Counted from the first letter of the stretch, positions 5,345 to 20,629 are shown. The stretch: 37,351 bases of DNA from Gammaproteobacteria bacterium (GCA_002715785.1 PBAA01000048.1:1-37351), one strand, 5' to 3'. Notes: generated by a model from the letters alone, not told the origin. Made by a program: numbers and translations.

Positions 5345-5884
5345 TTGTTGTTGCGACGGTTAGCTGTGAAGATCAAAACACCGGTTGTCGAAGTGCATAT
5401 TCCGATAGAGATTCGTCGGTCGCTTGTCTTGTTCGCCCTTGGTGTGCTGGCCGCGGGTTGTGAACCCAAGGATGTTAGGCCGGGATTTTGGCTTGCTGGT
5501 GAGGACGTAGCTTCACCTGTCGATGATTGGCAATTTACCGATCAAATTGACGAAATATTTATTGAAACTCGCTCTTGGTATGGCATTCCGCATTCCACCA
5601 CTATTTGGTGCGTGCACGTCGCGAATGAACTCTACATTGGGTCATACGGAGAAGAAAAAAAATACTGGGAAATCAATATTTTACGAGATAATCGTGCCAG
5701 GGTACGTATCAGAGGAAAGATCTACGACGTGACGGTAACGGGGCTGGATGACGCTACCCAACGCCATGTAGTCGATATGGCCTACCAACGAAAGTACGAT
5801 ATGGCCCAAACCTTTGGTAACGAGATTCCAACGTGGTCGTTTTATCGGGTCGAGCAGGATGGAAATGAAGAACCCTCTACATAA
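5345..5884 (+). CDS. Hypothetical protein, possible lipoprotein
   Basis: The N-terminal hydrophobic stretch ends in a lipobox-like VLAAGC. No family recognised. The start is uncertain (TTG 5345 or GTG 5366). Its 3' end overlaps the next gene by 20-26 nt. Confidence 0.45.
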   Translation: MLLRRLAVKIKTPVVEVHIPIEIRRSLVLFALGVLAAGCEPKDVRPGFWLAGEDVASPVDDWQFTDQIDEIFIETRSWYGIPHSTTIWCVHVANELYIGSYGEEKKYWEINILRDNRARVRIRGKIYDVTVTGLDDATQRHVVDMAYQRKYDMAQTFGNEIPTWSFYRVEQDGNEEPST

Positions 5885-7190
5885 CGAGATAGATCTTTCC
5901 GCGTACTGGATGCCTTTCACGGGCAACCGTGCATTTAAGAACGAGCCCCGACTCATGAAAAGCGCCCAAGGTCTTTACTACACCACCATAGATGATCGTC
6001 AAATTATGGATGGGATGTCGGGGCTCTGGTGTTGCAATGCGGGTCATTGCCATCCTCACATCGTTGAAGCCATTCGTCAGGCAGCGGGCGAGCTTGATTA
6101 TTCTCCCGCTTTCCAAATGGGGCACCCCGGAATTTTTCGCCTAGCGGAACGCTTGGCGGCCATGATGCCGAAGGGGATGGAGGCCGTTTTCTTCACTAAT
6201 TCAGGATCGGAATCCGTGGATACAGCGCTCAAGATTGCATTGGGGTATCACCATGCACGAGGAGAAGGACAACGGACGCGCTTGGTGGGGAGGCAACGCG
6301 GGTATCACGGTTCTGGATTTGGCGGGACGAGTGTCGGAGGTATCGGTAACAATCGCACGGCTGCTGGGCCCCTACTTCCCGGCGTACTTCATCTTCCGGA
6401 AACCTACAATGCCGAGCATCAGGCATTTAGCAAAGGCCAGCCTTCGTGGGGTGCACATCTTGCGAATGATCTTGAACGCATCATCGCGAGCAATCATGCG
6501 AGCACCATTGCGGCGGTCATTGTGGAACCTTTTGCCGGCTCGGGTGGGGTGTTGGTTCCGCCGGTGGGTTATCTGGAGCGACTTCGTGAAATCACTGAAG
6601 CTCACGGCGTTTTGCTCATCTTTGACGAAGTGATCACCGCCTTCGGTCGACTGGGTTGGGGTTCGGCAGCGGAGAGATTAGGCGTTGTACCTGACATCAT
6701 CTGTACCGCCAAGGGGCTCACGAGTGGCACGGTGCCGATGGGGGCTGTAGTCGTACAAGAGAAAATACGGGAAGCCTTTATGAAGGGGCCGCCGACGGCG
6801 ATCGAATTTTTTCATGGTTATACGTACTCAGGCCATCCTCTTGCCGCCGCCGCGGCGCACGCGGCATTGGATGTATATGAAAACGAAGGTTTGTTTCAGC
6901 ATGTGCTTGGACTCGAGTCGGCTTGGGAGGAGGGGTTGCACGCGTTGGCGGATAAGCCGCATGTGATCGACGTGCGTAATTTTGGCCTTGCCGGCGCCGT
7001 GGAATTACGTCCGCAAAATGACGCGCCGACTGAACGCGCGATGGCGGTATTTCGTGAGACGTTTGATCGAGGTTTGCTCGTTCGAACCACAGGAGACATT
7101 GTGGCTCTTGCACCTCCGTTGGTGATAACCGAAACGGAGATTGGTCAGATGCTGGGGATACTCGGTGACGTGTTGGATGACATCGACTAG
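5859..7190 (+). CDS. Omega-amino acid (beta-alanine)--pyruvate aminotransferase, class III PLP enzyme
   Basis: AYWMPFTGNRAFKNEPRL, LWCCNAGH, DYSPAFQMGHP, FFTNSGSES, IFDEVITAFGR, GYTYSGHPLAAAAA and VRNFGLAGAVEL are colinear with Pseudomonas beta-alanine:pyruvate transaminase as recalled. Start is at MEMKNPL (5859 or 5865). Confidence 0.85.
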   Translation: MEMKNPLHNEIDLSAYWMPFTGNRAFKNEPRLMKSAQGLYYTTIDDRQIMDGMSGLWCCNAGHCHPHIVEAIRQAAGELDYSPAFQMGHPGIFRLAERLAAMMPKGMEAVFFTNSGSESVDTALKIALGYHHARGEGQRTRLVGRQRGYHGSGFGGTSVGGIGNNRTAAGPLLPGVLHLPETYNAEHQAFSKGQPSWGAHLANDLERIIASNHASTIAAVIVEPFAGSGGVLVPPVGYLERLREITEAHGVLLIFDEVITAFGRLGWGSAAERLGVVPDIICTAKGLTSGTVPMGAVVVQEKIREAFMKGPPTAIEFFHGYTYSGHPLAAAAAHAALDVYENEGLFQHVLGLESAWEEGLHALADKPHVIDVRNFGLAGAVELRPQNDAPTERAMAVFRETFDRGLLVRTTGDIVALAPPLVITETEIGQMLGILGDVLDDID

Positions 7191-7211
7191 TTTTTGGATT
7201 CAGGAACGATA

Positions 7212-8732
7212 ATGGAAAGACACTTGGAAGCGACAGAGATCACGGGACATTTCGTTAGCGGCAAACCAGATGCTACTGGCTCGAAAAAGCTTGAGCGATT
7301 TGATCCGGCGACCGGCGAGAAAATTGGATACGTCACGCTTGCAGACGAAACGACAGTCAATGCCGCTGTTGAATCATCGATAAGTGCCTTCCAGGAATGG
7401 CGATTGGTCGAACCGGCAAAACGGGCAGTCGTTCTGAGACGTTTTTGCGACTTGGTGAGTGCCCGGGCGGACGAACTTTGTCGGCTTATTACTAGTGAAC
7501 ATGGCAAAACGCTGTTGGATTCTAAAGGCGAGCTTCAGCGCGGTATTGAGAATATCGAGTATGCCACTGGGATAGCGGAACACTTAAAGGGCGAACACAG
7601 TAAGGCGGTTGGACCGGATATCGACAGTTGGAGTGAATTGTCTCCCTTGGGTGTTGTCGTGGGCATTACGCCGTTTAATTTTCCAGTCATGGTTCCTCTT
7701 TGGATGTTCCCACTAGCCGTCGCCTGCGGAAACGCGTTTATTTTGAAACCTTCGGAGAAGGTTCCTACTGCGGGATACCGACTGGCGGAACTATTCTCGG
7801 AAGCGGGACTCCCCGATGGCGTTTTCAACGTTCTTCAAGGTGATCATGAGACCGCCGGGTGGTTGTTGAAACACCCGGATATCCAAGCAGCCAGCTTTGT
7901 TGGTTCGACGCCTGTCGCAAAGTCCATATACAAAGCTTCAGGTGAGAGTGGAAAGCGCGTTCAGGCCCTGGGCGGGGCGAAGAATCATGCTGTCGTGCTT
8001 CCCGACGCGGACATTGAATCCGCGACGAATGCGATTATGGGTGCGGCTTACGGATCGTGTGGCCAGCGCTGTATGGCCCTGTCGGTGGTGGTATCGGTGG
8101 GTGACGAGACTGCGGACGCGGTTGCTGACGTACTGACGAAGAAGGTTGCGGGATTAAATATCGGGCCGGGCATGGATGATCTCGATATGGGTCCGCTTAA
8201 CAGCGGCCCGCAGCGGGATCGAATCGTTGATTTGATCCAAGAGGGCGTGGATCAAGGGGCGACTATCCTGATCGATGGTCGAAGGCATGGTAGTTACCAA
8301 CAACCCGGCTTCTATCTTGGAGGCACGCTTTTTGACAACGTTCAACCAGGCATGTCGATTTATGATGAGGAGATATTCGGCCCCGTTCTTTGCCTAGTTC
8401 GTGTTAGGACCGCTAGTGATGCGATGCGGATAATTAATGACAGTCAGTACGGAAACGGGACCTGTATTTTTACTCGTGACGGCTATTCGGCGCGCACCTA
8501 CGCGAATGAAGTTGAGGCAGGCATGGTTGGGATTAACGTGCCCTTGCCTGTCCCAGTCGCCAATCACAGCTTTGGCGGCTGGAAAGATTCAAGATTTGGT
8601 GACCTTGCTGCCTATGGTCCGGACGGGGTGCGTTTTTACACCCGCCGCAAAACGATTACTGAACGTTGGACCTCGTCCGCGGGCGGTAGGGGTATCGATT
8701 TTGCATTTCCTGGCTCACGACCTGCCGGATAG
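7212..8732 (+). CDS. mmsA: CoA-acylating methylmalonate/malonate-semialdehyde dehydrogenase
   Basis: ATG 7212 is preceded by AGGAA (7202-7206). It has aldehyde dehydrogenase motifs (FILKPSEKVP, FVGSTPVAK, GQRCMA) and the MmsA-typical tail VPLPVPVANHSFGGWKDSRFGDL..YG.DGVRFYTRRKTITERW. Confidence 0.85.
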   Translation: MERHLEATEITGHFVSGKPDATGSKKLERFDPATGEKIGYVTLADETTVNAAVESSISAFQEWRLVEPAKRAVVLRRFCDLVSARADELCRLITSEHGKTLLDSKGELQRGIENIEYATGIAEHLKGEHSKAVGPDIDSWSELSPLGVVVGITPFNFPVMVPLWMFPLAVACGNAFILKPSEKVPTAGYRLAELFSEAGLPDGVFNVLQGDHETAGWLLKHPDIQAASFVGSTPVAKSIYKASGESGKRVQALGGAKNHAVVLPDADIESATNAIMGAAYGSCGQRCMALSVVVSVGDETADAVADVLTKKVAGLNIGPGMDDLDMGPLNSGPQRDRIVDLIQEGVDQGATILIDGRRHGSYQQPGFYLGGTLFDNVQPGMSIYDEEIFGPVLCLVRVRTASDAMRIINDSQYGNGTCIFTRDGYSARTYANEVEAGMVGINVPLPVPVANHSFGGWKDSRFGDLAAYGPDGVRFYTRRKTITERWTSSAGGRGIDFAFPGSRPAG

Positions 8733-8763: not shown

Positions 8764-9969
8764 TCAAAAATCTGCGGCTGGCGTCGCGCGCGTTCGCGCG
8801 GGAGACCAAAAGGGTTCATGTTTAATCGTGCATCTGGCGACTTTGCTGTACTGTCGCAGTTCCTTTTCATAATAGATTTCCGACCAGATTTCGCCTTCGA
8901 GATATTTGGTCTCGATCATTGCAAGCGCTATGTTTGCCTTGGCTGCTGGCGACCACATGCCGGATGTAACGTAGCCAATTTCCTCGGTGCAACGCTTGTT
9001 GCTGTATAGGAACGAACCTTCGGCAGGTTTATTGCCCTCGATGTCCAATTTCGTCAACGTGTAGCGCGGCCCACGTTTTTTCTCGTCGAACAAGGCCCTC
9101 CGACCGTTGAAGTGGGGTTTCTTAAAGTCGACCAACCATCCTAAATTAAGTTCGAAGGGTGTCTGGTCGTGTTCGAAATGGACAGTTTTTAGAGCTTCGT
9201 TGAACTCGTATCCCGGCATAATAAACCCGGCTTCGAGCCTCAACATGTTGGTCGCCTGGTCGCCGTAGGGATGAATACCCAGATCGTGGCCGGCTTTGTA
9301 GACAGCGTCCCACAACGGGATCGCGAGGTTATGATCTATCCATAGCTCGTACCCGAGGTCACCAGTGAATCCAGTTCTGGACACCATAAGTCGCGCATTT
9401 TGAAAATCGAAAAAGTTGATCGAGAAGGGCTTCGCGCTCTCGATATTCTCGAGACCCATACTCTTGAGTACAGCGCACGAAGTTGGCCCTTGCAGTGCCA
9501 TCGCCGCGACATCATCAGTCTTGTCGTCAATAGTGATGTCGTGGAAGCCGAAAGCGCTCTTGTCCAGCCAGGCGCTGCAGGGACTACCACAATTCAAGAT
9601 AAAGTGATCGTCTCCTAGCTTGAAAATCGTGCCGTCGTCGATCAGACGGCCCTCGTCGTTGCACCACACTACGTAGCTGGCACGATTGGTTCGTATTTTC
9701 GTTACGTCACGAGTCACCATCCGGTCTAACATTTTTTCCGCGTCTGCACCGGTGATGTGATATTTCTGCATAGGGCAAATGTCGTAGGTGCCACAGGTAT
9801 TGCGGACGCAAAAATATTCGAACTCCACGTCGTAAAAGTACTCTGCGAATTTGTAGCCGTTCCAGGACGACCAAGCGTCGTGAATATTGAGTTCATCTTG
9901 GCGTTGCTGGAAGTGGCTGGGTTTGGGCCGCTCGCTAGAAAAATCGTAGTCACTCATCGTAGAAGTCAT
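8764..9969 (-). CDS. GcvT-fold aminomethyltransferase-family protein (folate-dependent C1 transfer), free-standing
   Basis: SRTGFTGDLGYELWI matches the GcvT signature (SRTGYTGE.GFE). Length and domain order fit GcvT/DmdA-like proteins. The start (ATG 9969 or 9957) overlaps the stop of the upstream flavoprotein gene at 9950-9952. Confidence 0.8.
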   Translation of the reverse strand: MTSTMSDYDFSSERPKPSHFQQRQDELNIHDAWSSWNGYKFAEYFYDVEFEYFCVRNTCGTYDICPMQKYHITGADAEKMLDRMVTRDVTKIRTNRASYVVWCNDEGRLIDDGTIFKLGDDHFILNCGSPCSAWLDKSAFGFHDITIDDKTDDVAAMALQGPTSCAVLKSMGLENIESAKPFSINFFDFQNARLMVSRTGFTGDLGYELWIDHNLAIPLWDAVYKAGHDLGIHPYGDQATNMLRLEAGFIMPGYEFNEALKTVHFEHDQTPFELNLGWLVDFKKPHFNGRRALFDEKKRGPRYTLTKLDIEGNKPAEGSFLYSNKRCTEEIGYVTSGMWSPAAKANIALAMIETKYLEGEIWSEIYYEKELRQYSKVARCTIKHEPFWSPARTRATPAADF

Positions 9970-11569
9970 CTACCGGAACACTATTGGGTCGCTTAAGATC
10001 GATCAGAATTTCGCGCGCTGCGTTAGCACCACATGCGGACGACACGCCACCACCTGGATGCGTGGAGGAACCGCACATGTACATATGCTTTAGAGGCATC
10101 CTGTACTGCGCGTAACCGGGGAAAGGGCGGTTGAAGAACAACTGATCGATTGTGAGTTCACCTTGAAATATGTTGCCCTCGGTCAACCCGATTTCCTCTT
10201 CTATCTCGTGAGGAGTTCTCACTTCCATGTGCACAATCAAGTCCTTGAAGCCCGGGCAATAGCGAGCGATTTTGTCGACCACAGTTTGGCCAAACAGGTT
10301 TCTTTTCTCTTCTGTCCAAGGTCCGTCCGCAAGTTCGGCGGGACAGTACTGGATGAAGTTCGACATCCAGTGTTTTCCCGGTGGTGCAACCGTCGGATCC
10401 CAGGCAGAAGGAATAACGCCCTCGACGTAGGGATCGTCGGAGAAACGTCCGCGCTTCCAGCAATCGTACGCTCGTTCCATGGTTTCCAATGACCCCGTTA
10501 ATTCGAGCCCGCCTCGATTAACGTAGGCGTTGTCGGGCACGTTACTGAATTTAGGCAATGCGGATAAGGCAATGTTCACTTTTCCCGACGATCCGCGAAT
10601 CTTGAAGTTTTTTGCTTTATCGTAAATCCCGGGCGGGAGATCTTTCTCGTCCATGATTTGGGTAAATGTTCGTTTGGCGTCAAGGTTTGATACGACTACT
10701 CGGGCTCTGATTTCGTCTCCGTTTTCTAAGGCGACGCCTACCACCTTGTTTCCCTCGACAAGTATTTGTTCAACGCCAGCGTTGGTTCTGATTTCTCCGC
10801 CGAACGATTGAAAGGCCGATGCAATGGCTTTCGAAATTGCTCCCATGCCACCTCGCGCTAGACCCCAGGCGCCGATGCTCCCATCGACATCTCCCATTAC
10901 GTGGTGCAGCAAAATATATGAAGATCCGGGTGAGTAAACGCCTAATGCTGTACCGATGATTCCAGAACTCGCCTTGGACTGCTTGATCAACTCGTTTTCG
11001 AAGTAATCCTCGAGAAAGTCAACCGCGCTTAGCGTAAAGAATCGGACGTATTCGTAGATTTCCTTCTCACCGAGAGACCAAAATTGTTTTGCAAGGAACA
11101 GAAGTTCATGGATATCTCGACGTCGAAAAGAGGTCGGGTCGGGGGGTGTACGGAGCAATGTTTTCCGAATCAGTCGGGCGTATCTGGTCAGGTCAGCTTG
11201 AAAGCGGAACATCGAATCGGCGTCGTGTTTCGAATGCCGTTTCAGTTCAAGATAAGCGGCTTCCTCGCTGTTGTAGGCGATCAGTGTGTTCCCCACGTCG
11301 TCGTAGTTTACGGAACCTAGATACGGCACCAGAATTAACCCATGTCGACTGAGATCTAAGTCTCGATGGATTGCTTGACGCATCAAGCTGCAAACGTACG
11401 AACAATTTGAATATGTCCAACCTTCATGTAATTCACGGGATACAGCTGCACCGCCTATGTAGTCGTTCTTTTCTACGACCAGAACATCAAGGCCCGCCTT
11501 GGCCAAATAAGCTGCGTTTGTCAGGCCATTGTGGCCGGCCCCGATAATGATGGCATCGTAACGCTTCAC
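9950..11569 (-). CDS. FAD-dependent oxidoreductase, phytoene-desaturase/amine-oxidase-like (COG1233-type), paralogue 2
   Basis: N-terminal dinucleotide fold YDAIIIGAGHNGLTNAAYLAKAGLDVLVVEKNDYIGGA and C-terminal MCGSSTHPGGGVS..GANAA. The GTG start at 11569 overlaps the stop of the upstream paralogue (GTGA). Confidence 0.8.
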   Translation of the reverse strand: MKRYDAIIIGAGHNGLTNAAYLAKAGLDVLVVEKNDYIGGAAVSRELHEGWTYSNCSYVCSLMRQAIHRDLDLSRHGLILVPYLGSVNYDDVGNTLIAYNSEEAAYLELKRHSKHDADSMFRFQADLTRYARLIRKTLLRTPPDPTSFRRRDIHELLFLAKQFWSLGEKEIYEYVRFFTLSAVDFLEDYFENELIKQSKASSGIIGTALGVYSPGSSYILLHHVMGDVDGSIGAWGLARGGMGAISKAIASAFQSFGGEIRTNAGVEQILVEGNKVVGVALENGDEIRARVVVSNLDAKRTFTQIMDEKDLPPGIYDKAKNFKIRGSSGKVNIALSALPKFSNVPDNAYVNRGGLELTGSLETMERAYDCWKRGRFSDDPYVEGVIPSAWDPTVAPPGKHWMSNFIQYCPAELADGPWTEEKRNLFGQTVVDKIARYCPGFKDLIVHMEVRTPHEIEEEIGLTEGNIFQGELTIDQLFFNRPFPGYAQYRMPLKHMYMCGSSTHPGGGVSSACGANAAREILIDLKRPNSVPVDDFYDE

Positions 11570-13110
11570 GATAGAATCTCATGCGCAGCATTGTGTCCGG
11601 GAACACCGGTGATATCGCCTCCGGGATGCGATCCCGCCCCGCAAAGATATAGACCTCGTAGGGGCGTCTGATACTGCGCCGCACCATAGGTGGGTCGCAT
11701 CATAAAAAGTTGATCGAGTGCGAATTCGCCGTGGTGCCAATGACCTCCTGACGTACGGAACCTCTGTTCAAGATCGATGGGTGTCAGAAGTTCGCTTGCC
11801 ACAATCTGCTCACGAATGGTGGGCGCGTACAACTCGATTTTGTTGATAAGTTTGTCGATGAACGTGTCGATGGCTGTCTGATCCCATTGGCTTTTCATCT
11901 TGTAAGGGACGTACATGACGTGAGCGGACAAGACATGCTGACCACTTGGGGCGAGTGAGGGATCGCGCATGCTCGGAATCACTATCTCCATCACAGGATC
12001 AGTAGGACATTGGCCATACTTTGATTCGTCAAAAGCACTTTCAATCGTTGCCATATCCGGAGAAATGAGTAGCTGACCGTCGGATTGATCTAAGCCAGTG
12101 AATTGTGGCAAGCCGTTTAAGGCGAGATGGAGTTTTGCAACAAGCCCTTCTGAGCGAATACGGCGGATCCGATTCGTGAACTCGATTTCGAGATTTTCCG
12201 CACCCAGTAAAGTGAGAAACGTTGTCTTGGGGTCTGCCGAAGATACGATATTTTGGGCGGATATCAGTTCCCCGTTATCAACTTGCACACCGGTCGCACG
12301 AAGACCTTCTTTCTGCTGATCAACCACGATACGGCGTACCGACGAGTTGGTTCGAATCTCAATACCCTGTGATTTGGCTGATGAGCAGAGTGCGTCAATA
12401 AGGCGCGACGTACCTCCATTTGGTATTTCGTGTAAACCGCTCATGCCCTCAGACATTCGGTAGAGCATTAACATCACGGAATTGTTGGGCGACCTTGGTG
12501 CTTGCTTCGATCCGATAAGGCCGTTCCAGCAGAGTAGGGCTTTAAGGAGTGGATGATCGAAATACTCGTCCATGAGATCGTGTGTTGGCAGCGAGACGAT
12601 CCGTAGAAACTCGCGCATGTCGTCCTTGCCCAACATTCGCATTTTCACGCCAAGTTGAGCGAACGACAGTAGCTCGTGTAACGAATTGTTACCGATAGCG
12701 GGAACAGTTTTCAGCCAGAAGGGTGCTAAAAGATTGGCGAAGCGCTCGGTGAGTTTCGAGTAGTTTGCATAAGAGACCCGGTCTTTTTCGGTTACTCCGC
12801 TGACCGTATCGCCGTCGAGTACGACGTGATTCCCCTGGCGATTTAGCGCCACGCACGGCAGAGGGTTTGCCATAGCTGTTAGACCATGTTTCTGCAGTTC
12901 TAAGTCCCGATATATTTTTCGTGAGAAATGGCTGACCGTGTGTGCTACCGAGGTCCTAAAGCCAGGATGAAATTCGTAGCTAGACGCGAGCCCACCGGCC
13001 GCGCTTGATGCCTCAAGGACAAGAACCTTTTGTTTTTTTTGCGCCAGGTAATTGGCGCAAACCAGTGCGTTGTGGCCTGCGCCAATGATGACGGTGTCGT
13101 ATTGAGTCAC
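11566..13110 (-). CDS. FAD-dependent oxidoreductase, phytoene-desaturase/amine-oxidase-like (COG1233-type), paralogue 1
   Basis: YDTVIIGAGHNALVCANYLAQKKQKVLVLEASSAAGG and C-terminal LCGAGSHPGGDITG.PGHNAA. It is colinear with the downstream paralogue. The start is GTG. Confidence 0.8.
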   Translation of the reverse strand: MTQYDTVIIGAGHNALVCANYLAQKKQKVLVLEASSAAGGLASSYEFHPGFRTSVAHTVSHFSRKIYRDLELQKHGLTAMANPLPCVALNRQGNHVVLDGDTVSGVTEKDRVSYANYSKLTERFANLLAPFWLKTVPAIGNNSLHELLSFAQLGVKMRMLGKDDMREFLRIVSLPTHDLMDEYFDHPLLKALLCWNGLIGSKQAPRSPNNSVMLMLYRMSEGMSGLHEIPNGGTSRLIDALCSSAKSQGIEIRTNSSVRRIVVDQQKEGLRATGVQVDNGELISAQNIVSSADPKTTFLTLLGAENLEIEFTNRIRRIRSEGLVAKLHLALNGLPQFTGLDQSDGQLLISPDMATIESAFDESKYGQCPTDPVMEIVIPSMRDPSLAPSGQHVLSAHVMYVPYKMKSQWDQTAIDTFIDKLINKIELYAPTIREQIVASELLTPIDLEQRFRTSGGHWHHGEFALDQLFMMRPTYGAAQYQTPLRGLYLCGAGSHPGGDITGVPGHNAAHEILS

Positions 13111-13246
13111 GTGGACATCTTAGCGTAGTAATCGGTTGCGTTGACGAGCATATTGCGTGTGATCGGTCATGGCGATGGAGTCGTTGCCAGAAACGGTAAA
13201 TGAACCCACGTCATCGTCAGATTCACGAGAATGATTCGACACATTG

Positions 13247-14623
13247 CTACACCGTCAATAACAGATGCTGACGTTCCCACGCCGTAACGGTGGATGAAAA
13301 CTCACTGAGTTCTCTCGCCTTGAGATCAACGAACACGTTAACGAACCTTTCACCTAGAAGATCAATGATTGGTTCACACTGTAAGAGTAGCTCAAGCGAT
13401 TCGTGCAGGGATCGAGGTAGGGTGCGTTCAAGATCCCAAGCGCTTTCTGTTATGGGTTTGCTCGGACGTAAACCTTCCTGGATACCCAGGTAACCGCAAG
13501 CAAGACTCGCCGCAATCGCAAGGTAAGAGTTCGTATCGGAACCAGGTATTCGGTTTTCAATTCGGGTCGAGTCGGCGTTGCTACGCGGTATCCTGAATCC
13601 TGTCGTTCGATTGTCGATGCCCCATTGAGTATTGGTTGGGCAAGATTCTGCGTCTTCGAACCTTCGGTACGAATTTACGTAGGGTGCGAGGAATGCCATG
13701 ACGTGAGGCGTGTACTTCTGAAGACCGCCAAGGTAGGCGTATAACTGCTCGCTGTATTCGCCGTCATTGTCCGAGAAAAGATTCTCCCCGGATACGGCCT
13801 CCACGATACTTTGGTGTAGATGCATCGCGCTGCCGGGCTCATGCGACATCGGTTTGGATAAAAAGGTTGCGTGATAACCCTGTTCCACGGCGGCTTGCCT
13901 CGCAATCCTTTTAAAATTGAACATCCCGTCAGCAGACGCCAAAGGGTCGCCGTGCCGGAAGTTGATCTCTAGCTGGCCGCATCCCATCTCGCTGACGACA
14001 CCTGCCGTCTCGATATCGTGGCCCTTTGAATATTCGTATAGCCTTTCGAGGAAAGGGGAGAACTCGGCTAGAGCTTCTGTTTGGAAAGAGCGGGGCGTTT
14101 TCTGCTGGCGACCAGATGTGCCGGTTGCAGCTTGAATGGGTTTGGTGGGGTCGGGATTTTTTTCCACCAGATAGAACTCGGCCTCTTGAGCAACGACAGG
14201 ATTCAAGTTCTTGGCGTGAAAAAGCTCCAGGATATGTTTCAAAATCGTTCGTGGTGCGATAGTTGAGGCGGCGCCTTCGAGAGTTTCACAGTCGCAAATG
14301 CATTGCGCGGTTTTGGTGGTCGACCAAGGCTGCTCGATCAGAGTTGTTGTATCCGGGATCAACAACATGTCGATATCAGCAACGTCGAATAGGTCGTGAT
14401 TTTCAGACCACCCACCAATGATATCTTGTCCAAATACCGCTTCTGGCAAACGGATGCCGCCTTTTGCCAGGTCTTCGGCTGGGACGATCTTCCCTTTACT
14501 CACACCGTGAATGTCAGGGACCAGACATTCGACTAGATCGATCTGGCGGGAGGCTAGCCATTCTTCTGCCGTAGTCATCGGCGCGTGCTCAAATAAATGC
14601 GCTGGCACTTTGCCAGCACTCAT
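13247..14623 (-). CDS. Glutamine-synthetase-family gamma-glutamyl-amine ligase (PuuA/PauA/GmaS-like)
   Basis: GS catalytic-domain segments EAEFYL, GQLEINF, HATFLSKPM...GSAMHLHQS, APYVNSYRRF, DNRTTGFRIP and RIENRIPGSD.N.YLA are colinear with E. coli PuuA as recalled. The start is uncertain (TTG 14635, ATG 14623 or ATG 14578). Confidence 0.85.
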   Translation of the reverse strand: MSAGKVPAHLFEHAPMTTAEEWLASRQIDLVECLVPDIHGVSKGKIVPAEDLAKGGIRLPEAVFGQDIIGGWSENHDLFDVADIDMLLIPDTTTLIEQPWSTTKTAQCICDCETLEGAASTIAPRTILKHILELFHAKNLNPVVAQEAEFYLVEKNPDPTKPIQAATGTSGRQQKTPRSFQTEALAEFSPFLERLYEYSKGHDIETAGVVSEMGCGQLEINFRHGDPLASADGMFNFKRIARQAAVEQGYHATFLSKPMSHEPGSAMHLHQSIVEAVSGENLFSDNDGEYSEQLYAYLGGLQKYTPHVMAFLAPYVNSYRRFEDAESCPTNTQWGIDNRTTGFRIPRSNADSTRIENRIPGSDTNSYLAIAASLACGYLGIQEGLRPSKPITESAWDLERTLPRSLHESLELLLQCEPIIDLLGERFVNVFVDLKARELSEFSSTVTAWERQHLLLTV

Positions 14624-14715
14624 TTTTGGTTGCAAACGTGCTCAGCCATCCGCATTGATCGGCCTCGTCAAACTGGCTATCGTCGAAATGAGTATTAACC
14701 CAGGGCACCAGTTCG
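14624..14715. promoter_or_regulatory. Divergent intergenic region between the GS-like operon and the spuC-like operon
   Basis: This call is positional only. The two outward-facing operons must be initiated from here. I could not identify convincing -35/-10 or sigma-54 elements by eye. Confidence 0.3.
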
Positions 14716-16077
14716 ATGTACAACTACACTACCGATCAACTACAGGATCTGGATACCAAACACTATCTTCATCCCTTTACCGATCACCGACAGCTGGCCG
14801 TCGAAAGAAGCCGTATCATTACTCGTGCGAATGGGATCTATCTTTGGGACAGCGATGGAAATCGCTACCTGGATGCGATGGCTGGTCTCTGGTGCGTCAA
14901 CGTTGGCTACGGGCGCGAGGAAATTGCTGACGCCGCAAGCCAGCAGATGCGTGAATTGCCCTACTACAATAGTTTCTTCAAAACCGCGCATCCACCTGCC
15001 ATTGAACTATCACGCCTCGTCTGTTCGCTAGCTCCAGCGCATTTGAATCGCGTGTTCTTTACCGGTTCCGGATCCGAGGCAAACGATACCGTCGTCCGAA
15101 TGGCTCGCTATTACTGGTCATTAAAAGGGCTACCAGATAAGAAAGTCATCATCAGTCGCAACAATGCCTACCATGGGAGCACGATCGCAGCCGCGAGTCT
15201 CGGGGGCATGCGCACTATGCACGTGCAGGGCGGTCTTCCTATTGCCGACATAGACTACATAGGTCAACCGTACTGGTACCAGGATGGCGGAGATCTTCTT
15301 CCGAACGAATTCGGCGAGAAAGTTGCAGATGAACTGGAACAGAAGATCCTCGAGCTTGGCGAGGGTAATGTCGCGGCATTTATCGCTGAACCAATACAAG
15401 GTGCCGGTGGAGTCGTCATTCCGCCGCCAACCTACTGGCCCAGAATTCAATCAATTTGCGATAAGTATCAAATACTGTTGGTCGCTGACGAAGTTATCTG
15501 CGGGTTTGGGCGAACCGGCAAGTGGTTCGGGAGTGACTACTTCGAAATCAAACCGGACTTGATGTCGATTGCTAAAGGTCTGTCTTCGGGATATGTACCA
15601 ATCGGCGGAGTATTGGTCAGTGACGATGTTGCGTCCGTTCTGATAGAAGATGGCGGTGAGTTTAACCACGGATTCACATACTCGGGTCATCCTGTCGCCG
15701 CCGCCGCCGCCATTGCCAATCTTAATATCTTGCGGGACGAAGGCGTGGTCGATCGAGTGGAGACCGAAACGGCCCCCTATATTGCGAAGAAATGGCAACA
15801 ATTAACGGCGCACGAGCTGGTCGGTGAGGCTAGGATTGTGGGGCTCATTGGCGCTCTGGAGTTGGTGAAGGACAAAGCTACGCGGCAGTTCTTCGACGAT
15901 CGAGGAGCAGTGGGTACGCTCTGCAGGGATATTTGTTTTAACAGCGGCTTGGTCATGCGAGCCATAGAGGACACGATGGTGATTTCGCCACCTCTTTGTA
16001 TTACCAGGGGGGAAATTGATGAGCTGATTGGTCTTGTTGTGCGTTGCCTCGATCAGACCGCGCAAAAGATTCAGTGA
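14716..16077 (+). CDS. spuC: Polyamine (putrescine):pyruvate aminotransferase, SpuC-like class III PLP enzyme
   Basis: Near-colinear with P. aeruginosa SpuC from memory: HYLHPFTD, LDAMAGLWCVNVGYGREE, MRELPYYNSFFKTAHPP, FFTGSGSEANDT, FIAEPIQGAGGV, ADEVICGFGRTG, FTYSGHPVAAA, MRA..DTM.ISPPL. Confidence 0.85.
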   Translation: MYNYTTDQLQDLDTKHYLHPFTDHRQLAVERSRIITRANGIYLWDSDGNRYLDAMAGLWCVNVGYGREEIADAASQQMRELPYYNSFFKTAHPPAIELSRLVCSLAPAHLNRVFFTGSGSEANDTVVRMARYYWSLKGLPDKKVIISRNNAYHGSTIAAASLGGMRTMHVQGGLPIADIDYIGQPYWYQDGGDLLPNEFGEKVADELEQKILELGEGNVAAFIAEPIQGAGGVVIPPPTYWPRIQSICDKYQILLVADEVICGFGRTGKWFGSDYFEIKPDLMSIAKGLSSGYVPIGGVLVSDDVASVLIEDGGEFNHGFTYSGHPVAAAAAIANLNILRDEGVVDRVETETAPYIAKKWQQLTAHELVGEARIVGLIGALELVKDKATRQFFDDRGAVGTLCRDICFNSGLVMRAIEDTMVISPPLCITRGEIDELIGLVVRCLDQTAQKIQ

Positions 16078-16093
16078 CGGGACAACGTTGGGC

Positions 16094-16954
16094 ATGAAGT
16101 TTAAGGATTCGATATACGACACCTTTAGTTTCTCAGCGGATCTGAATCTTGGAGCGGTCGGGAGCGTTGAAGATCTGTTAGGCCAAGCCAGAATATTGTC
16201 AGGCTCGGTCGATGGAATACACGTAAGCGACGGTCCCAACGATGGCGTCCACTTCCCGGCGTTGGCCGCCGCTCGGTTGCTTATAGAAAATGATATCGAT
16301 CCAATTCTGCAAATATCCTGCCGCGACAAGACCCGGTCGACCTTGGAGATCGAAATAGCGGGCGCACTCGCGCTGGGTGTGACCAGTATGCTCCTCGTAC
16401 GCGGCGAATCAGCGGGAATCAGCGGTACATCGGATCGGATTGTGAAAGTCAGCACGACCGAACTCATCCAGTTGGTGCGCAGTTTGGAAGACAGAGCGGA
16501 GCAAGCCAATTTATCGGTGGGTACGATCGCAACCGTGTTCAAGCCAGCCGCCGATTGGCGACCGCAAGCACTGCTAAAGAAAACGCATGCTGGCGCAAAT
16601 TTCATTCGCACACAGCTGTGTTTTGATACCGACAAGCTTAACGTCTACATGCCCAATCTAGTTCGGTCCAAAGTGACGTGGAAGGCGCCGATTTTCGTTA
16701 ACTTAGCTGTTTTGCCATCGGCTAAAGCCGCCAAATGGCTGGCCGAAAACCTGCGCGGTTCTCTGATTCCCCAAAAGGTGATTAAGCGAATGGAACAAGC
16801 CGTCGACCCGATATCGGAGGGAGTCGACGTCGCAGCGGAACTCATCGCCGAATTCAACACGATCCCGGGGATCTCGGGGGTTTGCCTCATGACGCCAGGA
16901 CCGCCCGAACTAATCCTAGAGGCGATCAAGGCCTCGGGAGTACGACAGGAATAG
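16094..16954 (+). CDS. Methylenetetrahydrofolate-reductase-fold (MetF/MTHFR family) protein
   Basis: I moved the start to ATG 16094 (MKFKDSIYDTFSFS), because the listed 16028 start overlaps the spuC 3' end. FSFS.., HVSDGP, QISCRDKTR, MLLVRGES, KKTHAGANFIRTQLCFD, PIFVNLAVLPS and GVCLMT follow the MetF TIM-barrel layout. Confidence 0.7.
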   Translation: MKFKDSIYDTFSFSADLNLGAVGSVEDLLGQARILSGSVDGIHVSDGPNDGVHFPALAAARLLIENDIDPILQISCRDKTRSTLEIEIAGALALGVTSMLLVRGESAGISGTSDRIVKVSTTELIQLVRSLEDRAEQANLSVGTIATVFKPAADWRPQALLKKTHAGANFIRTQLCFDTDKLNVYMPNLVRSKVTWKAPIFVNLAVLPSAKAAKWLAENLRGSLIPQKVIKRMEQAVDPISEGVDVAAELIAEFNTIPGISGVCLMTPGPPELILEAIKASGVRQE

Positions 16955-16974: not shown

Positions 16975-19467
16975 CTATTTACCGCCGAATTTGTAGCGGA
17001 AGTTGAAGCCGAAGCTGCGTGGTTGATTCACGGTCAGTCTTTGTTGCGCAAATCGGTTATTGAAAAATAACTCGCCGTTTTCATCCGTGGCGTTGTCCAC
17101 GTACAACGATGCGCTCCAGACGTCGGTTTCTACTCCCGCTTGAATGTCAAATGTTCGCCAGGATCCTTGCTGAACAACCGGTGGCGAAAACGAGATGGAT
17201 TCGATACCGGCTAGCGAATTGACCGACTCGCCCGTGTAGGTATAGCGAAGCATAATATACGGCTCGCCGCCGAATAGAGTCCGAGGTAGCTGGTACATTA
17301 CTTTCAAATGACGCTTTACGTCGGGGACGATAGGTAGTTGGGTACCGACTGGCACTGGGATCGCACCAGGTGTATTTGCGAACAACGTTTGCGCTTGCGA
17401 CAGTTCGCCATCGTTGCGGCCCACTGTTGCTTCGACGCTCCAGTTCGCATTCGGTAACCAACTTACCCACATTTCGACGCCGTCGATGTCCGCCTCGGGA
17501 AAATTGACGATGCCGAGGGTGAAAATATTATCTTGAGGATCCTCGGCCTGAACCTGGATGTTTTCCCAGGTCATTTGATAGTACGAGATATTGAACCGTA
17601 GTCGATCATCCAGCCATTCTGTTTTCGCGCCGATTTCGTGGTTGATAACAGTATCAGACTCGTAGGAATTCAATGTCCCAGCGGGCTCGTCAAAGAGATC
17701 GGATGGTGGGCCGAAGACCGATTGCGGTCGGGCTGAGTTAGCACCCCCGCGGCGGAATCCTTCTGAGTAAGTGGCGTAGACCAACGCGTTCTCCCATCGG
17801 TAGGAAAAATTGACCATCGGGACGAATCCATCTTCATCGGAGACGCCGAGGTCCCCCGGCGCATAACAGTAGTCGATGGCACAGTTGGGCATACCGCCAT
17901 TCATACCGATAAGCGTAGCGTTCATAACGATGTAATCGTTTTCGATACTGTAGAACCGCCCGCCTGCCTTGATGGTGAAATTCTCGGTAACGTCGACGCT
18001 GACTTCGCCAAAGAAAGCTGATTGTTTCAGGTCACTATCGTAAACACCCGTCCACCAGTTGTTGGATGCCGACTTCATCGGAATGCCGACGTAGTAGCCG
18101 GCATAGTTGATGTAATTGAATGCCCCTGTGCCGGTCAGACCTTCCACGTTTGATATAAACACTTCATCGACTTGGCGTTTGCTATAAAAAGCACCAACGA
18201 TGGCGGACCAGCGCCCGTCCGTTGGCGTGGCGTAACGTGCCTCAATCACCCAGTTATTGGTCTGCCTTCCGTCGAAGTCATTTGCAATGGGATCGCCGCC
18301 AAAATCGTAGATTCCGCCGGTGTCGTAATAGGGATTTCCCGTATTGAAAGAGCGGAAGTAGTCGCCGACTTGTTGGAAGTTCTGAAGGTATGAGGTGCTG
18401 TCCGCGAGATATGTGCTTTCCCGATCGTAATAGGCAGTAGTCAGCACAACGTCGCCGAAACTGAGGTTGCCTTCTAGGGTTAATGCGATCTGGTACCACT
18501 CGTCTTCCCAGTAATCCTGGGTATAGCGAGCTTGGTCATGAGGCCCGAAAGACGGGAAAACGGACGTATCGGCAAAGTGCTGTTTATTCAAGCTAACGTC
18601 GCCGAAGCCGTCCATCTCGTAGTACTGGTAGATCCCGGTAAGGTCTACGGTCCAGTTCTCACCCGTCTCGAGTCGAAGGCCCGCTCGTCCGCCGTACCAG
18701 ACCGATGAGTTGACGTCGCTATCGACTCGATTGCTATTGGTCGACGTTTGCCCGGGCGTGGGCGTCAGCACGTTGTCGACCCATCCCGGCTCGTTCGCGT
18801 AAAAGCCAACGAGGCGCACGGCGGCTTTGAGGTCCGGGTAGAGGCTACTGCCATCTTCTAGAAGCGGCACATTGATCATTCCGCTCAGATCGGTTCCCGC
18901 GCCTCCCTCCGAGACGGACCAGCTTGATACGTCCAGCCACCCGTCACTTGCAGTGGTGTCAGGTTTGTTGGTGATGATCCGTAACGTGCCGCACTGCGCC
19001 GCGTCACCGAAAAGTGACCCCTGAGGGCCGCCTAATGCCTCAACGCGGGCGACGTCGACAAGACGGGGATCCGGGTTATAGCCGGCCGACGTGATCGGTT
19101 GTTCATCGAGATAAACCGACGTGGTCGCTGAGTCGCTGAAAGACAAGCCTTGGGCAGCACATCCTCGCATGATGATTGAATTTGCACCCGGTTCACGCTG
19201 ACTGAGCGCAAGCCCTGGGATTTGTCCAACGTAATCTTCGAAGTTATCTAGTCGTTGGAGCGTGATTTCTTCGTCGGTAATGGCGGTGACAGAAAGGGGC
19301 GTGTCCTGAAGTTTTAGATCCCGCTTCGTTGCAGTGACAATGACTTCTTCGAGTCGAGCATCGTCCGCGTCCGATTCCGCTTGAGCACCACCCGTGCCGG
19401 CCACGGCTGCTGTTATCGCCAGCGAAAGATTGCGCCCGGTTGAAGAATTCTTGCGATCGTTTGTCAT
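16975..19467 (-). CDS. TonB-dependent outer-membrane receptor
   Basis: ATG 19467 has an AGAGGA SD upstream. It has a signal peptide (..AVAGTGGAQA/ES), the plug start LEEVIVTATKRDLKLQDTPLSVTAI, and long beta-barrel repeats rich in Y/G/N. The C-terminal strand FGFNFRYKF is followed by an unusual GGK extension. Confidence 0.9.
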   Translation of the reverse strand: MTNDRKNSSTGRNLSLAITAAVAGTGGAQAESDADDARLEEVIVTATKRDLKLQDTPLSVTAITDEEITLQRLDNFEDYVGQIPGLALSQREPGANSIIMRGCAAQGLSFSDSATTSVYLDEQPITSAGYNPDPRLVDVARVEALGGPQGSLFGDAAQCGTLRIITNKPDTTASDGWLDVSSWSVSEGGAGTDLSGMINVPLLEDGSSLYPDLKAAVRLVGFYANEPGWVDNVLTPTPGQTSTNSNRVDSDVNSSVWYGGRAGLRLETGENWTVDLTGIYQYYEMDGFGDVSLNKQHFADTSVFPSFGPHDQARYTQDYWEDEWYQIALTLEGNLSFGDVVLTTAYYDRESTYLADSTSYLQNFQQVGDYFRSFNTGNPYYDTGGIYDFGGDPIANDFDGRQTNNWVIEARYATPTDGRWSAIVGAFYSKRQVDEVFISNVEGLTGTGAFNYINYAGYYVGIPMKSASNNWWTGVYDSDLKQSAFFGEVSVDVTENFTIKAGGRFYSIENDYIVMNATLIGMNGGMPNCAIDYCYAPGDLGVSDEDGFVPMVNFSYRWENALVYATYSEGFRRGGANSARPQSVFGPPSDLFDEPAGTLNSYESDTVINHEIGAKTEWLDDRLRFNISYYQMTWENIQVQAEDPQDNIFTLGIVNFPEADIDGVEMWVSWLPNANWSVEATVGRNDGELSQAQTLFANTPGAIPVPVGTQLPIVPDVKRHLKVMYQLPRTLFGGEPYIMLRYTYTGESVNSLAGIESISFSPPVVQQGSWRTFDIQAGVETDVWSASLYVDNATDENGELFFNNRFAQQRLTVNQPRSFGFNFRYKFGGK

Positions 19468-19574
19468 CAGATTCCTCTTGTAAGTCCGACGGCTGTCTGG
19501 TCGGTTTGTGGAAAAGAATTTTACCGAAAACCTCGACAAATATCTTTGTTTCTCGGTCGGGAGGTCACTGAATT

Positions 19575-19697
19575 ATGGTTGACCTATTTTGGCAATCCCT
19601 GACGCTTGATTTCTGGTGCCGAACCATCGTTCTCGTTGCTGATGGACGTGGAGGTATGCTTGTTACTTCGGTACTTATCTCAAAAAGCATGCGATGA
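19575..19697 (+). CDS. Candidate 40-codon small ORF (MVDLFWQSLTLDFWCRTIVLVADGRGGMLVTSVLISKSMR), function unknown
   Basis: Not in the ORF track because it is too short. GGGAGG at 19559-19564 lies 10 nt upstream of ATG 19575. Its TGA (19695-19697) overlaps ATG 19694 of the next gene (ATGA). A 40-codon open frame alone is not statistically unusual. Confidence 0.25.
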   Translation: MVDLFWQSLTLDFWCRTIVLVADGRGGMLVTSVLISKSMR

Positions 19698-20629
19698 CCA
19701 CTCTCGTTGCAACGTCCGTTGTTCGCGGCAGCCGCCAAGGCGAGAGCCATGGCGGGGTTTACCTGATTGATTTAACGAACGAGCGCGTATTGAGGACTGT
19801 CGATTGGGATGCGGTGGATATCGATTGGCAGGGTCGAGGGTGGGATCGGGGCTTACGTGGTATCGAGTTTGACGGAGATAGGATCTTTATTGCGGCGAGT
19901 GACGAACTTTTTGTTTACGACCAAACGTTTCGGCAGATAACGTCGTATCGCTGTCCGTACCTAAAACACTGTCATGAAATCAGTCGATATGAGCGCCGAC
20001 TTTACCTGACCTCTACGGGATTCGATGCCATCCTTGGATTTGACTTGGATAGGAATTTGTTTTCTTGGGGACTCAGTGTCTCCAGGGATAAAAAAGGCCT
20101 TCGAGCGGTTCCGTTTGACCCAGAAAGTCGACACGGACCACCCTTGCGTAACGAACTTCATATCAACAGTATCTTTTGCGAGAGTCGCGCGATGTACATA
20201 AGTGGTCTACGTACTTCGGGTATACATGCGTACACCGGGAGACACCTTAATCAAGTGGCGACGCTGCCTGACGGGACCCATAACGCCCGACCATATCGGA
20301 ACGGAGTGTTATTCAACGATACGCAAAAGAATGTGGTTCGTTTTGTTCCGCAGCAAGGCAAGCAAGGTGTATTTAACATTCCGGTATATAACCCGGGGCT
20401 GCTCACGCATACCGAGTTCGATGACTCTCGTGTTGCGCGCCAAGCCTTTGGTCGGGGCCTCTGCGTGATCCGCGATGGTGTGATTGCTGGTGGATCATCG
20501 CCTTCGACGGTCACCCTGTACGACATTGATCAGATGAAAACAACGCAGTCCTTGAATCTATCGCTTGATATCAGGAATGCGATTCACGGTTTGGAAACTT
20601 GGCCATTTCCAGGTTTACCCGACGACTAA
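19694..20629 (+). CDS. Hypothetical protein with beta-propeller-like internal periodicity (possibly DUF4915/TIGR03032-like)
   Basis: There are five to six blade-like segments of about 45-50 aa (LRGIEFDGDRIFIAASDELFVYD, HEISRYERRLYLTSTGFDAILGFD, LHINSIFCESRAMYISG, HNARPYRNGVLFNDTQKNVVRFV, GRGLCVIRDGVIAGGSSPSTVTLYD). The family assignment is from memory and tentative. Confidence 0.6.
   Translation: MTTLVATSVVRGSRQGESHGGVYLIDLTNERVLRTVDWDAVDIDWQGRGWDRGLRGIEFDGDRIFIAASDELFVYDQTFRQITSYRCPYLKHCHEISRYERRLYLTSTGFDAILGFDLDRNLFSWGLSVSRDKKGLRAVPFDPESRHGPPLRNELHINSIFCESRAMYISGLRTSGIHAYTGRHLNQVATLPDGTHNARPYRNGVLFNDTQKNVVRFVPQQGKQGVFNIPVYNPGLLTHTEFDDSRVARQAFGRGLCVIRDGVIAGGSSPSTVTLYDIDQMKTTQSLNLSLDIRNAIHGLETWPFPGLPDD

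Follow-up and report, generated by a model that had tools for sequence, protein, structure and literature searches.

Three overlapping genes at 8764-13110 on the minus strand of a 37,351-nucleotide stretch of DNA from a Gammaproteobacteria bacterium (GCA_002715785.1, PBAA01000048.1:1-37351; the whole stretch is called the window below) on balance probably encode a heterotrimeric, FAD- and tetrahydrofolate (THF)-dependent amine N-demethylase, located here in a polyamine/alkylamine catabolic island. Two of the genes code for paralogous flavoproteins of the PYROXD2 family and the third for a free-standing GcvT-fold protein; the three are referred to as the trio. The assignment was drawn from gene order, coupling, domain content, motif conservation, PYROXD2 homology and recurrent neighbours, all of which were observed directly. 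THF-coupled oxidative amine demethylation is already known, whereas its construction from two PYROXD2-family subunits and a free GcvT protein was not found described. Full-text literature searches turned up neither an account of this set of genes nor a biochemical function of PYROXD2, and the source names of 240 close and profile-level homologues were all generic. The first-pass annotation of this DNA, made from the sequence alone, had known of no characterised pathway of this composition, and neither the literature nor database names supplied one.

Open reading frames (ORFs), Pfam and NCBIfam searches and direct reading of the junctions bore out the six genes of that annotation with their coordinates, domains and overlaps. 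The first trio gene, flavoprotein 1 ('alpha' clade; 11566-13110, 514 aa), contains PF01593 and NAD_binding_8 domains. The second, flavoprotein 2 ('beta' clade; 9950-11569, 539 aa), contains PF01593 together with an N-terminal FAD fold. The third (8764-9969, 401 aa) is the GcvT-fold folate protein, which scored 193 bits against PF01571 (threshold 25.6) and 35 bits against PF08669 (threshold 25.9). The stop codon of flavoprotein 1 and the start codon of flavoprotein 2 overlap as GTGA, and the GcvT start overlaps the flavoprotein 2 stop by 20 nt (ATG at 9969) or by 8 nt (ATG at 9957, giving 397 aa). External gene callers found the same gene set on identical metagenome contigs, including TARA Oceans contigs, with shorter starts for GcvT (397 aa) and for the upstream glutamine synthetase (GS)-like gene (443 aa).

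The conservation of the trio was examined by a scan with the GcvT protein using one genome per species, which confirmed 227 relatives; the best 80 loci were kept. Most of them belong to metagenome-assembled genomes (MAGs) of Woeseiaceae, Halieaceae and other Pseudomonadales/Cellvibrionales, together with three cultured Lentisalinibacter species and a few Alphaproteobacteria MAGs. Woeseiaceae and Halieaceae are major marine sediment and coastal bacteria. Room for the trio (at least 3.3 kb upstream of GcvT) was available in 65 loci, and in all 65 the order and strand of flavoprotein 1, flavoprotein 2 and GcvT were identical, even as the identity of flavoprotein 1 dropped as low as 50%. The mean identity to the window proteins was 81% for flavoprotein 2 (71 loci), the most conserved member, 71% for GcvT and 57% for flavoprotein 1, and the flavoprotein 2 stop and the GcvT match lay a median of about 20 nt apart. 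An identical flavoprotein 2 protein was found on 22 metagenome contigs, TARA Oceans contigs among them, with an unchanged neighbourhood.

The three-gene architecture was found again at 28-50% identity in other lineages, including Acidobacteriota, and family representatives 39-50% identical to flavoprotein 2 again occurred in flavoprotein-flavoprotein-GcvT sets; some distant representatives sit on contigs too short to show gene context. In the distant trios L088, L091 and L093 the flavoprotein identity was 39-40%. In L088/L089 (5297-11348) the trio lies directly downstream of speD (S-adenosylmethionine decarboxylase) and beside speE (spermidine synthase) and glnE, and in L091 (3833-15593) it follows glnE, with a DAO-type FAD oxidoreductase and GS-like pair a few genes downstream. 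These loci suggest that the trio is tied to polyamine and nitrogen-status genes beyond marine Gammaproteobacteria; the speD/speE link comes from one lineage, since a metagenome scan with the distant L088 GcvT returned the source contig only. L093 carries three flavoproteins and one GcvT, in the Acidobacteriota-type loci L095 and L096 GcvT adjoins the flavoprotein pair on the opposite strand, and L087 represents a solo flavoprotein without GcvT.

Eleven loci (L010, L012, L014, L024, L026, L031, L035, L038, L047, L055 and L074) contain a second, paralogous trio at 37-67% identity and within 10 kb of the first, some in the order flavoprotein 2-flavoprotein 1-GcvT. Two proteins of about 900 aa (P0391 and P0392, one from a Paracoccaceae MAG) appear as fused flavoprotein 2-flavoprotein 1 ORFs, which may be genuine fusions or artefacts of read-through or assembly. 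The trio is thus a conserved, translationally coupled and non-random unit, in agreement with the coupling that the first-pass annotation had proposed from this one stretch.

The GcvT subunit was then compared with known folate proteins. Its nearest solved structures are the T-protein 1yx2 and, second, the trimethylamine N-oxide demethylase Tdm (9q5a), and alignment with the T-proteins 1yx2 and 1woo and with Tdm 9q5a revealed shared DD, SRTGxTGxxGYE and LRLEAG motifs. Residues D111/D112, R198, E208, R244 and E246 were conserved in 23 sequences, including GcvT proteins of distant trios at 28-44% identity. The DD motif contains the catalytic Asp of T-proteins, and the motifs are presumed to contact folate as in established T-protein structures. 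By these alignments, GcvT keeps the predicted folate-binding and catalytic motifs, in distant trios as well; an inspection of the folate pocket had been proposed in the first-pass annotation. The protein also has family-specific conserved extensions at the N-terminus (about residues 1-35) and the C-terminus (about 361-401), outside the T-protein alignment, which could be docking elements. It remained below every NCBIfam cut-off: the best match was the C-terminal half of Tdm, true T-proteins also matched, and the T-protein equivalogs gave 161 bits against 236 (TIGR00528) and 214 against 300 (PRK00389). A role in glycine cleavage was rejected because no GcvH-like gene was found in the window or the 80 loci with the GcvH probe used, and the window has no ORF long enough to encode GcvP.

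Motifs in the N-terminal and central parts of the flavoproteins seemed to resemble those of human PYROXD2, which was the starting lead for the comparison; a PYROXD2 probe sequence served only to fetch PYROXD2 proteins from the database. Against mouse PYROXD2 (P0224), flavoprotein 2 showed 37% identity over 547 positions (348 bits, E = 8e-118) and flavoprotein 1 showed 34% identity over its full length (282 bits, E = 1e-92). The two flavoproteins are 33% identical to each other, and thus as close as either is to PYROXD2. An exhaustive search over 1.84 billion representatives gave a family of 1,975 clusters (50% identity) at E = 1e-30 or better. Proteins of about 580 aa among the top matches were PYROXD2 of oyster, flatworm and mayfly and a choanoflagellate protein; bacterial members bear generic names such as 'NAD(P)/FAD-dependent oxidoreductase' or 'phytoene dehydrogenase-like'. 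Both flavoproteins keep all family-invariant residues, including GxGxxG and the C-terminal HPGG, and flavoprotein 1 shows a GAGHNAL motif together with its C-terminal HPGG.

In a neighbour-joining tree, which is crude and without support values, every trio, including the distant ones, had one member in the flavoprotein 1 clade and one in the flavoprotein 2 clade, which implies that the alpha/beta duplication is probably ancient. PYROXD2 fell into a third clade, apart from both, which it shares with bacterial members that stand solo, for example L039's third flavoprotein. Full-length similarity and shared FAD motifs thus place the flavoproteins in the PYROXD2 family, and the relation, as far as sequence comparison can tell, is one of family membership and not of orthology. 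An 816-aa protein (P0308, Logan assembly) carries a formaldehyde-activating (GFA) domain naturally fused to a PYROXD2-clade flavoprotein.

The first-pass annotation had called the flavoproteins CrtI-type. An AlphaFold2 model of flavoprotein 2 (pLDDT 85, pTM 0.88) indeed had CrtD 4rep as its best PDB fold (TM 0.72), with CrtI also matched, followed closely by putrescine oxidase, the nicotine oxidoreductase NicA2 and monoamine oxidase. By sequence, the nearest solved structures were CrtI and CrtD at only 36-80 bits, and no solved structure of any member of the PYROXD2-type flavoprotein family was found. The best NCBIfam scores lay far under the cut-offs (CrtI family, 113 bits against 238 with TIGR02734; CrtO, 268-278 against 1000). 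Although carotenoid desaturases share the overall fold and are the nearest curated sequence models, their identity is about 20% and carotenoid genes are absent around the trio; moreover, we know of no coupling of Crt enzymes to a folate protein. The two proteins are therefore better termed PYROXD2-family than CrtI-type, and are predicted not to be carotenoid desaturases. That they are carotenoid or isoprenoid desaturases or ketolases, in line with their automated names, with GcvT adjacent by chance, is very improbable: the Crt models and folds (CrtD 4rep, CrtI 4dgk) are the best curated matches and a gene for a carotenoid or stilbene oxygenase of RPE65 type is present at 629-2251, but that gene is kept only in the closest relatives, no other crt genes occur in the window or among recurrent neighbours, similarity to PYROXD2 is much above that to CrtI, and the GcvT coupling is invariant.

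Human genetics links PYROXD2 to methylated amines. The protein is mitochondrial, loss of both alleles leads to a severe metabolic disorder in infants, and its 'precise biological function' is described as unknown (PMC8777681); PYROXD2 was accordingly used as a lead and not as a source of annotation. The locus is an mQTL (a quantitative trait locus for metabolites) for urinary trimethylamine and plasma dimethylamine, and lower PYROXD2 expression accompanies higher trimethylamine (PMC3169529). In a cerebrospinal-fluid mQTL study PYROXD2 gave the strongest signal, for N-epsilon-dimethyl-lysine, and a link to N6-methyl-lysine had been reported earlier (bioRxiv 10.1101/2023.09.26.559021); an association with N2-acetyl,N6,N6-dimethyllysine is also on record (PMC13352909). 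These associations point to consumption of N-methylated alkylamines, the same chemistry that the folate coupling independently suggests.

From these observations we infer complex formation, demethylation chemistry, THF use, an electron path and a class of substrate, as follows. The three gene products would form one cytoplasmic complex of two paralogous FAD subunits and a GcvT-fold THF-binding subunit, an association favoured indirectly by the gene overlaps, the invariant gene order and the apparent flavoprotein 2-flavoprotein 1 fusions, which may be artefacts. One flavin would oxidise the C-H bond of an amine N-methyl (N-CH2-) group to an iminium, which, or a formaldehyde equivalent of which, would be handed to the GcvT subunit. 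There N5/N10 of THF would capture the carbon as 5,10-methylene-THF, and the demethylated amine would be released. Electrons may exit via the second flavoprotein to oxygen or quinone, the acceptor being a guess. Where PurU is present, it would dispose of the one-carbon (C1) unit as formate. The GS-like ligase described below might then gamma-glutamylate the demethylated product, or the SpuC-like enzyme described with it might transaminate it, and C3 amine fragments might pass through beta-alanine and malonate semialdehyde to acetyl-CoA by the AptA/BauA-like and BauC-like enzymes. Such a route, from an N-methylated di- or polyamine through demethylation and gamma-glutamylation or transamination to beta-alanine or gamma-aminobutyrate (GABA)-type products, is coherent but unproven. 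Alternatively, because no PuuD-like hydrolase was seen in the window, the GS-like enzyme may make a gamma-glutamyl-N-methylamide that the trio would convert directly to glutamine and methylene-THF. Candidate substrates include omega-N-methylated di- and polyamines or methyl-lysines, dimethylamine or trimethylamine, gamma-glutamyl-methylamide, and dimethylglycine or sarcosine; any single one is much less probable than the demethylase assignment as such, and the sequences of the GS-like and DAO-type proteins did not narrow the choice. Demethylation and gamma-glutamylation of the substrate had both been put forward as possibilities in the first-pass annotation, and they are inferences here too.

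Known THF-linked demethylases differ from the trio in construction, as the first-pass annotation had held for DAO-GcvT fusions and SoxABDG/MgdABCD, and NCBIfam and PDB comparison extended the distinction to Tdm. SoxABDG/MgdABCD are likewise multi-subunit flavoenzymes for N-methyl oxidation that pass the carbon to THF on a GcvT-fold module, often with PurU in the cluster. They have, however, a DAO-type catalytic SoxB, a GcvT module within an alpha subunit of about 1000 aa and small delta and gamma subunits, whereas the trio consists of two PYROXD2/CrtI-fold subunits and a free 400-aa GcvT, and homologues of SoxB, SoxD and SoxG are not in the operon; GcvT covers only positions 646-959 of the soxA model (150 bits against 1164). 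DMGDH, SARDH and DMGO also combine FAD-dependent N-demethylation with THF capture, and their GcvT domain aligns with that of the window (5l46, 4p9s, 1pj5), but each is a single polypeptide with a DAO-type FAD domain, whereas the trio GcvT is an unfused 401-aa protein with GcvT domains only and PF01593-type partners. The C-terminal GcvT domain of Tdm was the best NCBIfam match (235 bits) of the window GcvT, besides being its second-best PDB match, and Tdm channels formaldehyde to THF (PMC13619132). Tdm is nevertheless a flavin-free protein in which the GcvT domain is fused to a metal-dependent DUF1989 catalytic domain at the N-terminus; the window protein matched model positions 401-761 only and stayed far below the cut-off of 1100 bits. 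PYROXD2 is a full-length homologue of both flavoproteins with similar length, the same FAD motifs and a genetic link to N-methylated amines, but it is encoded by one gene, carries a mitochondrial presequence, has no known GcvT partner and falls in a separate clade. DmdA, LigM/DesA and Dmt with type-4 MTHFR resemble the present locus in having a free-standing GcvT-fold protein with an MTHFR-fold gene nearby, but they need no flavoprotein and yield methyl-THF.

The neighbourhood of the trio was surveyed by clustering all ORFs in the 43 loci that extend at least 5 kb on both sides of it. An AraC-HTH/SnoaL regulator was the most frequent companion (26/43), although it is absent from this window, followed by the DAO-type FAD oxidoreductase (23/43) and a membrane protein without a family match that travels with the DAO gene (20/43). 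A small MOSC protein occurred within 10 kb in 19 loci, often directly after GcvT, and further PYROXD2-like flavoproteins in 14. GS-like ligases, including paralogues of about 30% identity, were found within 10 kb in 13 loci (about 30%), class-III transaminases in 11 (about 26%), an aldehyde dehydrogenase of the methylmalonate-semialdehyde dehydrogenase (MMSDH) cluster in 8, and PurU and MTHFR-like genes in 5 each (the latter about 12%). At least one amine-catabolic companion, counting genes for GS-like proteins, DAO, class-III transaminases, aldehyde dehydrogenase, agmatinase and Tat-FAD proteins, lay within 10 kb in 37 of the 43 loci. PurU and agmatinase were confirmed above equivalog cut-offs and GFA by Pfam; agmatinase was near the trio in 6 other loci, and separate GFA genes were present in 15 trio loci. 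PurU-type genes occur in clusters of THF-dependent demethylases (PMC11868366). The DAO-type protein scored best, below cut-off in both cases, with the pipecolate oxidase and aminophosphonate oxidoreductase models, and is paired with GS in L039 and L091. In L012 and L047 the gene directly upstream of the trio encodes an AptA homologue, and L039, L056 and L057 have one nearby.

In the window itself, genes for beta-alanine metabolism lie next to the trio. An omega-amino-acid (beta-alanine type) pyruvate transaminase similar to AptA/BauA (5814-7190, plus strand; NF052567, 671 bits against a cut-off of 500) is followed by a CoA-acylating (methyl)malonate-semialdehyde dehydrogenase similar to BauC (7194-8732, plus strand; TIGR01722, 585 bits against 448), which is convergent with GcvT across a 31-nt gap. 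The small MOSC-domain protein (PF03473) is encoded at 4764-5342 on the plus strand. The DAO-type gene (31906-33174, plus strand; PF01266, 232 bits) is 19 kb from the trio here, and the accompanying multi-pass membrane protein (33445-34311, minus strand) is recognised by its hydrophobic sequence, Pfam and NCBIfam searches having given no match.

Upstream of the trio stands an accessory arm. The GS-like gene (13247-14623, minus strand; PF00120, 311 bits) ends 136 nt before flavoprotein 1. It scored 193 bits against 650 for gamma-glutamylputrescine synthetase (GGputSyn) and 215 against 470 for type III GS, and was also below the GlnA cut-off. The nearest PDB entry is the uncharacterised 5dm3, with the GmaS structures 9qur and 7cql scoring lower. 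The gene product is thus a putative ATP-dependent glutamate-amine ligase, of which the GS catalytic domain alone is established. On the plus strand, divergent from it, lie a class-III (SpuC-type) amine-pyruvate transaminase (14716-16077; PF00202), which exceeded the cut-off of the PRK07480 subfamily (767 bits against 510), and a divergent MTHFR-fold protein (16094-16954, 286 aa). The latter passed the gathering score of PF02219 (61 bits against 24), but reached 47 bits against 294 for the MetF equivalog TIGR00676 and no NCBIfam cut-off; its sole PDB match was 6fnu (21 bits, E = 1e-3). Its identification as a type-4 methyl-THF oxidase (S6MTHFR; PMC11868366) was rejected because similarity was lacking beyond that 21-bit match, and, in contrast to the type-4 MTHFR arrangement, it is rarely linked to the trio.

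The arm of GS and transaminase, with or without MTHFR, is made up of the same orthologues only in the closest relatives (L001, L003-L007, L009, L020, L034 and L053). In L018, L019 and L068 an MTHFR-like gene stands beside the sulfotransferase/TonB-receptor/AspH cluster described below, with no GS-like gene detected in the locus. The pairing of the trio with GS-like and MTHFR-like genes, proposed in the first-pass annotation, therefore holds in part, in that such genes do occur near other trios, but the 'divergent operon pair' is not a conserved unit. The statement that both arms carry a folate enzyme fares worse, given the low scores of the MTHFR-fold protein and its presence in so few loci.

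A mechanical reading of the GS-like ORF extends to 14635, whereas external gene callers favour the 443-aa start near 14578; the spacer to the transaminase measures 92 nt, which becomes 137 nt if the shorter GS start is taken. A perfect 7-bp inverted repeat (GCTGGCA-CTT-TGCCAGC) was observed at 14599-14619, at the 5' end of the GS-like gene or, if the 443-aa start applies, within the divergent intergenic region. It was flagged as terminator-like on both strands by the scan and may act as an operator or form a hairpin in the mRNA. The promoter and terminator scan of the window gave counts not above shuffled expectation. No riboswitch was found by an Rfam search of the whole window at gathering scores, and over 12900-14900, with E up to 1, Rfam gave only a 15.6-bit sRNA match.

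Several points weigh against the demethylase assignment. The neighbour counts are raw, without a background control, and a one-carbon companion was found in only 14 of the 43 loci. No electron-transfer flavoprotein (ETF) or cytochrome gene that could serve as electron acceptor travels with the trio. In the Acidobacteriota-type loci the trio stands alone, without catabolic neighbours, so that the polyamine context may be lineage-specific. GcvT-fold proteins can be non-oxidative methyl transferases, as in DmdA and LigM, in which case the flavoproteins would need another role. The position of PYROXD2 in the third clade means that its function is not simply transferable to the trio, and its metabolite links are statistical associations, not enzymology. 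Finally, a PuuD-like gamma-glutamyl hydrolase was not recognised in the window, where ORFs of 150 aa or longer were considered, so that the full Puu-type route is not encoded in the window. The window and related loci do resemble the Puu/Pau and Bau pathways in their GS-like, DAO oxidase, aldehyde dehydrogenase, SpuC-type and beta-alanine transaminase and malonate-semialdehyde dehydrogenase genes, but the Puu/Pau pathways have no folate component, and the window GS-like protein falls below the GGputSyn cut-off.

The stand-alone trio of Acidobacteriota type would suit a ubiquitous substrate, and the same chemistry might act on an ordinary one. The trio, and its paralogue in other genomes, would then be the dimethylglycine and sarcosine dehydrogenases of bacteria lacking SoxABDG, DgcAB or DMGDH, as a non-orthologous replacement in glycine-betaine catabolism and not a route tied to polyamines. 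PurU is a typical companion in sox and betaine clusters, the paralogous trio of L014 adjoins a divergent BetI-type TetR regulator, in company with a xylose-isomerase-like TIM-barrel gene, and the window holds a GbcA-like Rieske oxygenase (30519-31925), although at 157 bits this is well below its cut-off of 670. No betaine transporter, BHMT or glyA was found among the recurrent neighbours, however; the genes that do recur encode GS-like, DAO and class-III transaminase proteins, agmatinase and SpeD/SpeE, and human PYROXD2 has been linked to dimethyl-lysine, dimethylamine and trimethylamine and not to dimethylglycine or sarcosine. We therefore regard these substrates as improbable.

The GS-like, SpuC-like, BauA/BauC-like, agmatine deiminase and Pot transporter genes of the window, the agmatinase loci and speD/speE beside the L088 trio form a polyamine-related context that might instead mean that both flavoproteins act as polyamine dehydrogenases or oxidases. 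In that case they would split a secondary amine (spermidine, norspermidine or a gamma-glutamyl-polyamine) into a diamine and an amino-aldehyde, and GcvT would have a non-C1 role, for instance in channelling an imine or aldehyde or in structure; the PF01593 fold is common to polyamine, putrescine and monoamine oxidases. A GcvT with a purely structural role would have no need, however, of the strictly conserved folate and catalytic motifs, and the PurU and GFA genes nearby, like the GFA fusion, speak for carbon at the formaldehyde level. To our knowledge, all characterised GcvT-fold partners of amine-oxidising or demethylating enzymes pass C1 units to folate. This reading, too, seems unlikely to us, to a similar degree.

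The position of the L088 trio directly after speD and beside speE, both polyamine biosynthesis genes, would also fit the opposite direction, in which an amine would be methylated or aminomethylated at the expense of reduced flavin and methylene-THF, on the model of the flavin- and folate-dependent TrmFO and ThyX and of MnmE/MnmG. The pairing of MnmE, with its GcvT-like folate domain, and the FAD protein MnmG resembles that of an FAD protein with a GcvT-fold protein. Most neighbours of the trio are nevertheless catabolic or regulatory (AraC-type regulator, DAO oxidase, transaminases, aldehyde dehydrogenase, PurU), PurU removes C1 units and does not supply them, and no NAD(P)H-binding reductase partner is evident; a biosynthetic role is thus quite improbable.

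The remaining genes of the window are as follows. The first 4646 nucleotides hold an aromatic or stilbene-type catabolic set, kept only in the closest relatives: the C-terminus of an FMO-like monooxygenase (40-567, plus strand; 544 aa according to identical contigs), the RPE65-type carotenoid/lignostilbene-type cleavage oxygenase mentioned above (minus strand), the 4-hydroxyphenylacetate 3-hydroxylase HpaB (2313-3764, plus strand) and the extradiol dioxygenase LigB (3786-4646, plus strand). A DUF2255 protein (5345-5884, plus strand), with a weak likeness to deazaflavin-dependent nitroreductase-fold proteins, lies between the MOSC gene and the beta-alanine-type transaminase and is also kept only in the closest relatives. 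Beyond the MTHFR-fold gene, a four-gene cluster (16975-23393) that recurs beside the trio in other loci comprises a TonB receptor (16975-19539, minus strand; near the trio in 11/43 loci), an ORF of 311 aa without a match in Pfam and NCBIfam searches (19694-20629, plus strand; 10/43), a TPR-sulfotransferase (20630-22699, minus strand; 11/43) and an Asp/Asn beta-hydroxylase-like protein, AspH (22737-23393, plus strand; 6/43). Agmatine deiminase, near but below NCBIfam cut-offs, and then a four-gene Pot-type polyamine ABC transporter occupy 23412-28474 on the minus strand. The segment 28595-36097 is a second amine or quaternary-amine gene block, containing a Tat-FAD gene, the Rieske oxygenase, the DAO/membrane-protein pair and a PhyH-type dioxygenase. 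Its 622-aa FAD protein with a twin-arginine (Tat) signal (TRRDFIGG), which we take to resemble the spermidine dehydrogenase SpdH, has homologues near the trio in 9/43 loci.

Beyond the demethylase assignment, a bolder proposal is possible but tentative. The trio might found a new class of amine demethylases, in which flavoproteins of the PYROXD2 family, in place of DAO-type ones, oxidise omega-N-methyl groups of di- and polyamines or methyl-lysines and a separate GcvT channels the carbon to THF. By extension, human PYROXD2 might be the missing mitochondrial demethylase of N-epsilon-(di)methyl-lysine or methylamines. Among marine substrates, the N-methylated propylamine units of diatom long-chain polyamines would then be candidates.

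The trio is unnamed yet abundant in marine metagenomes, with at least 7,900 close GcvT relatives scored, and its carriers include MAGs of Woeseiaceae, Halieaceae and Acidobacteriota. If the demethylase assignment is correct, it would represent an unrecognised route from methylated nitrogen compounds to ammonium-level nitrogen and folate-bound carbon. For PYROXD2, which has had strong and replicated links to methylated amines since 2011, a severe mitochondrial disease and no known reaction, the operon offers a concrete, testable reaction. If the extension to the human protein is also true, PYROXD2 would be the enzyme that accounts for a metabolite QTL ranking among the strongest in humans and for a lethal mitochondrial disorder of infancy.

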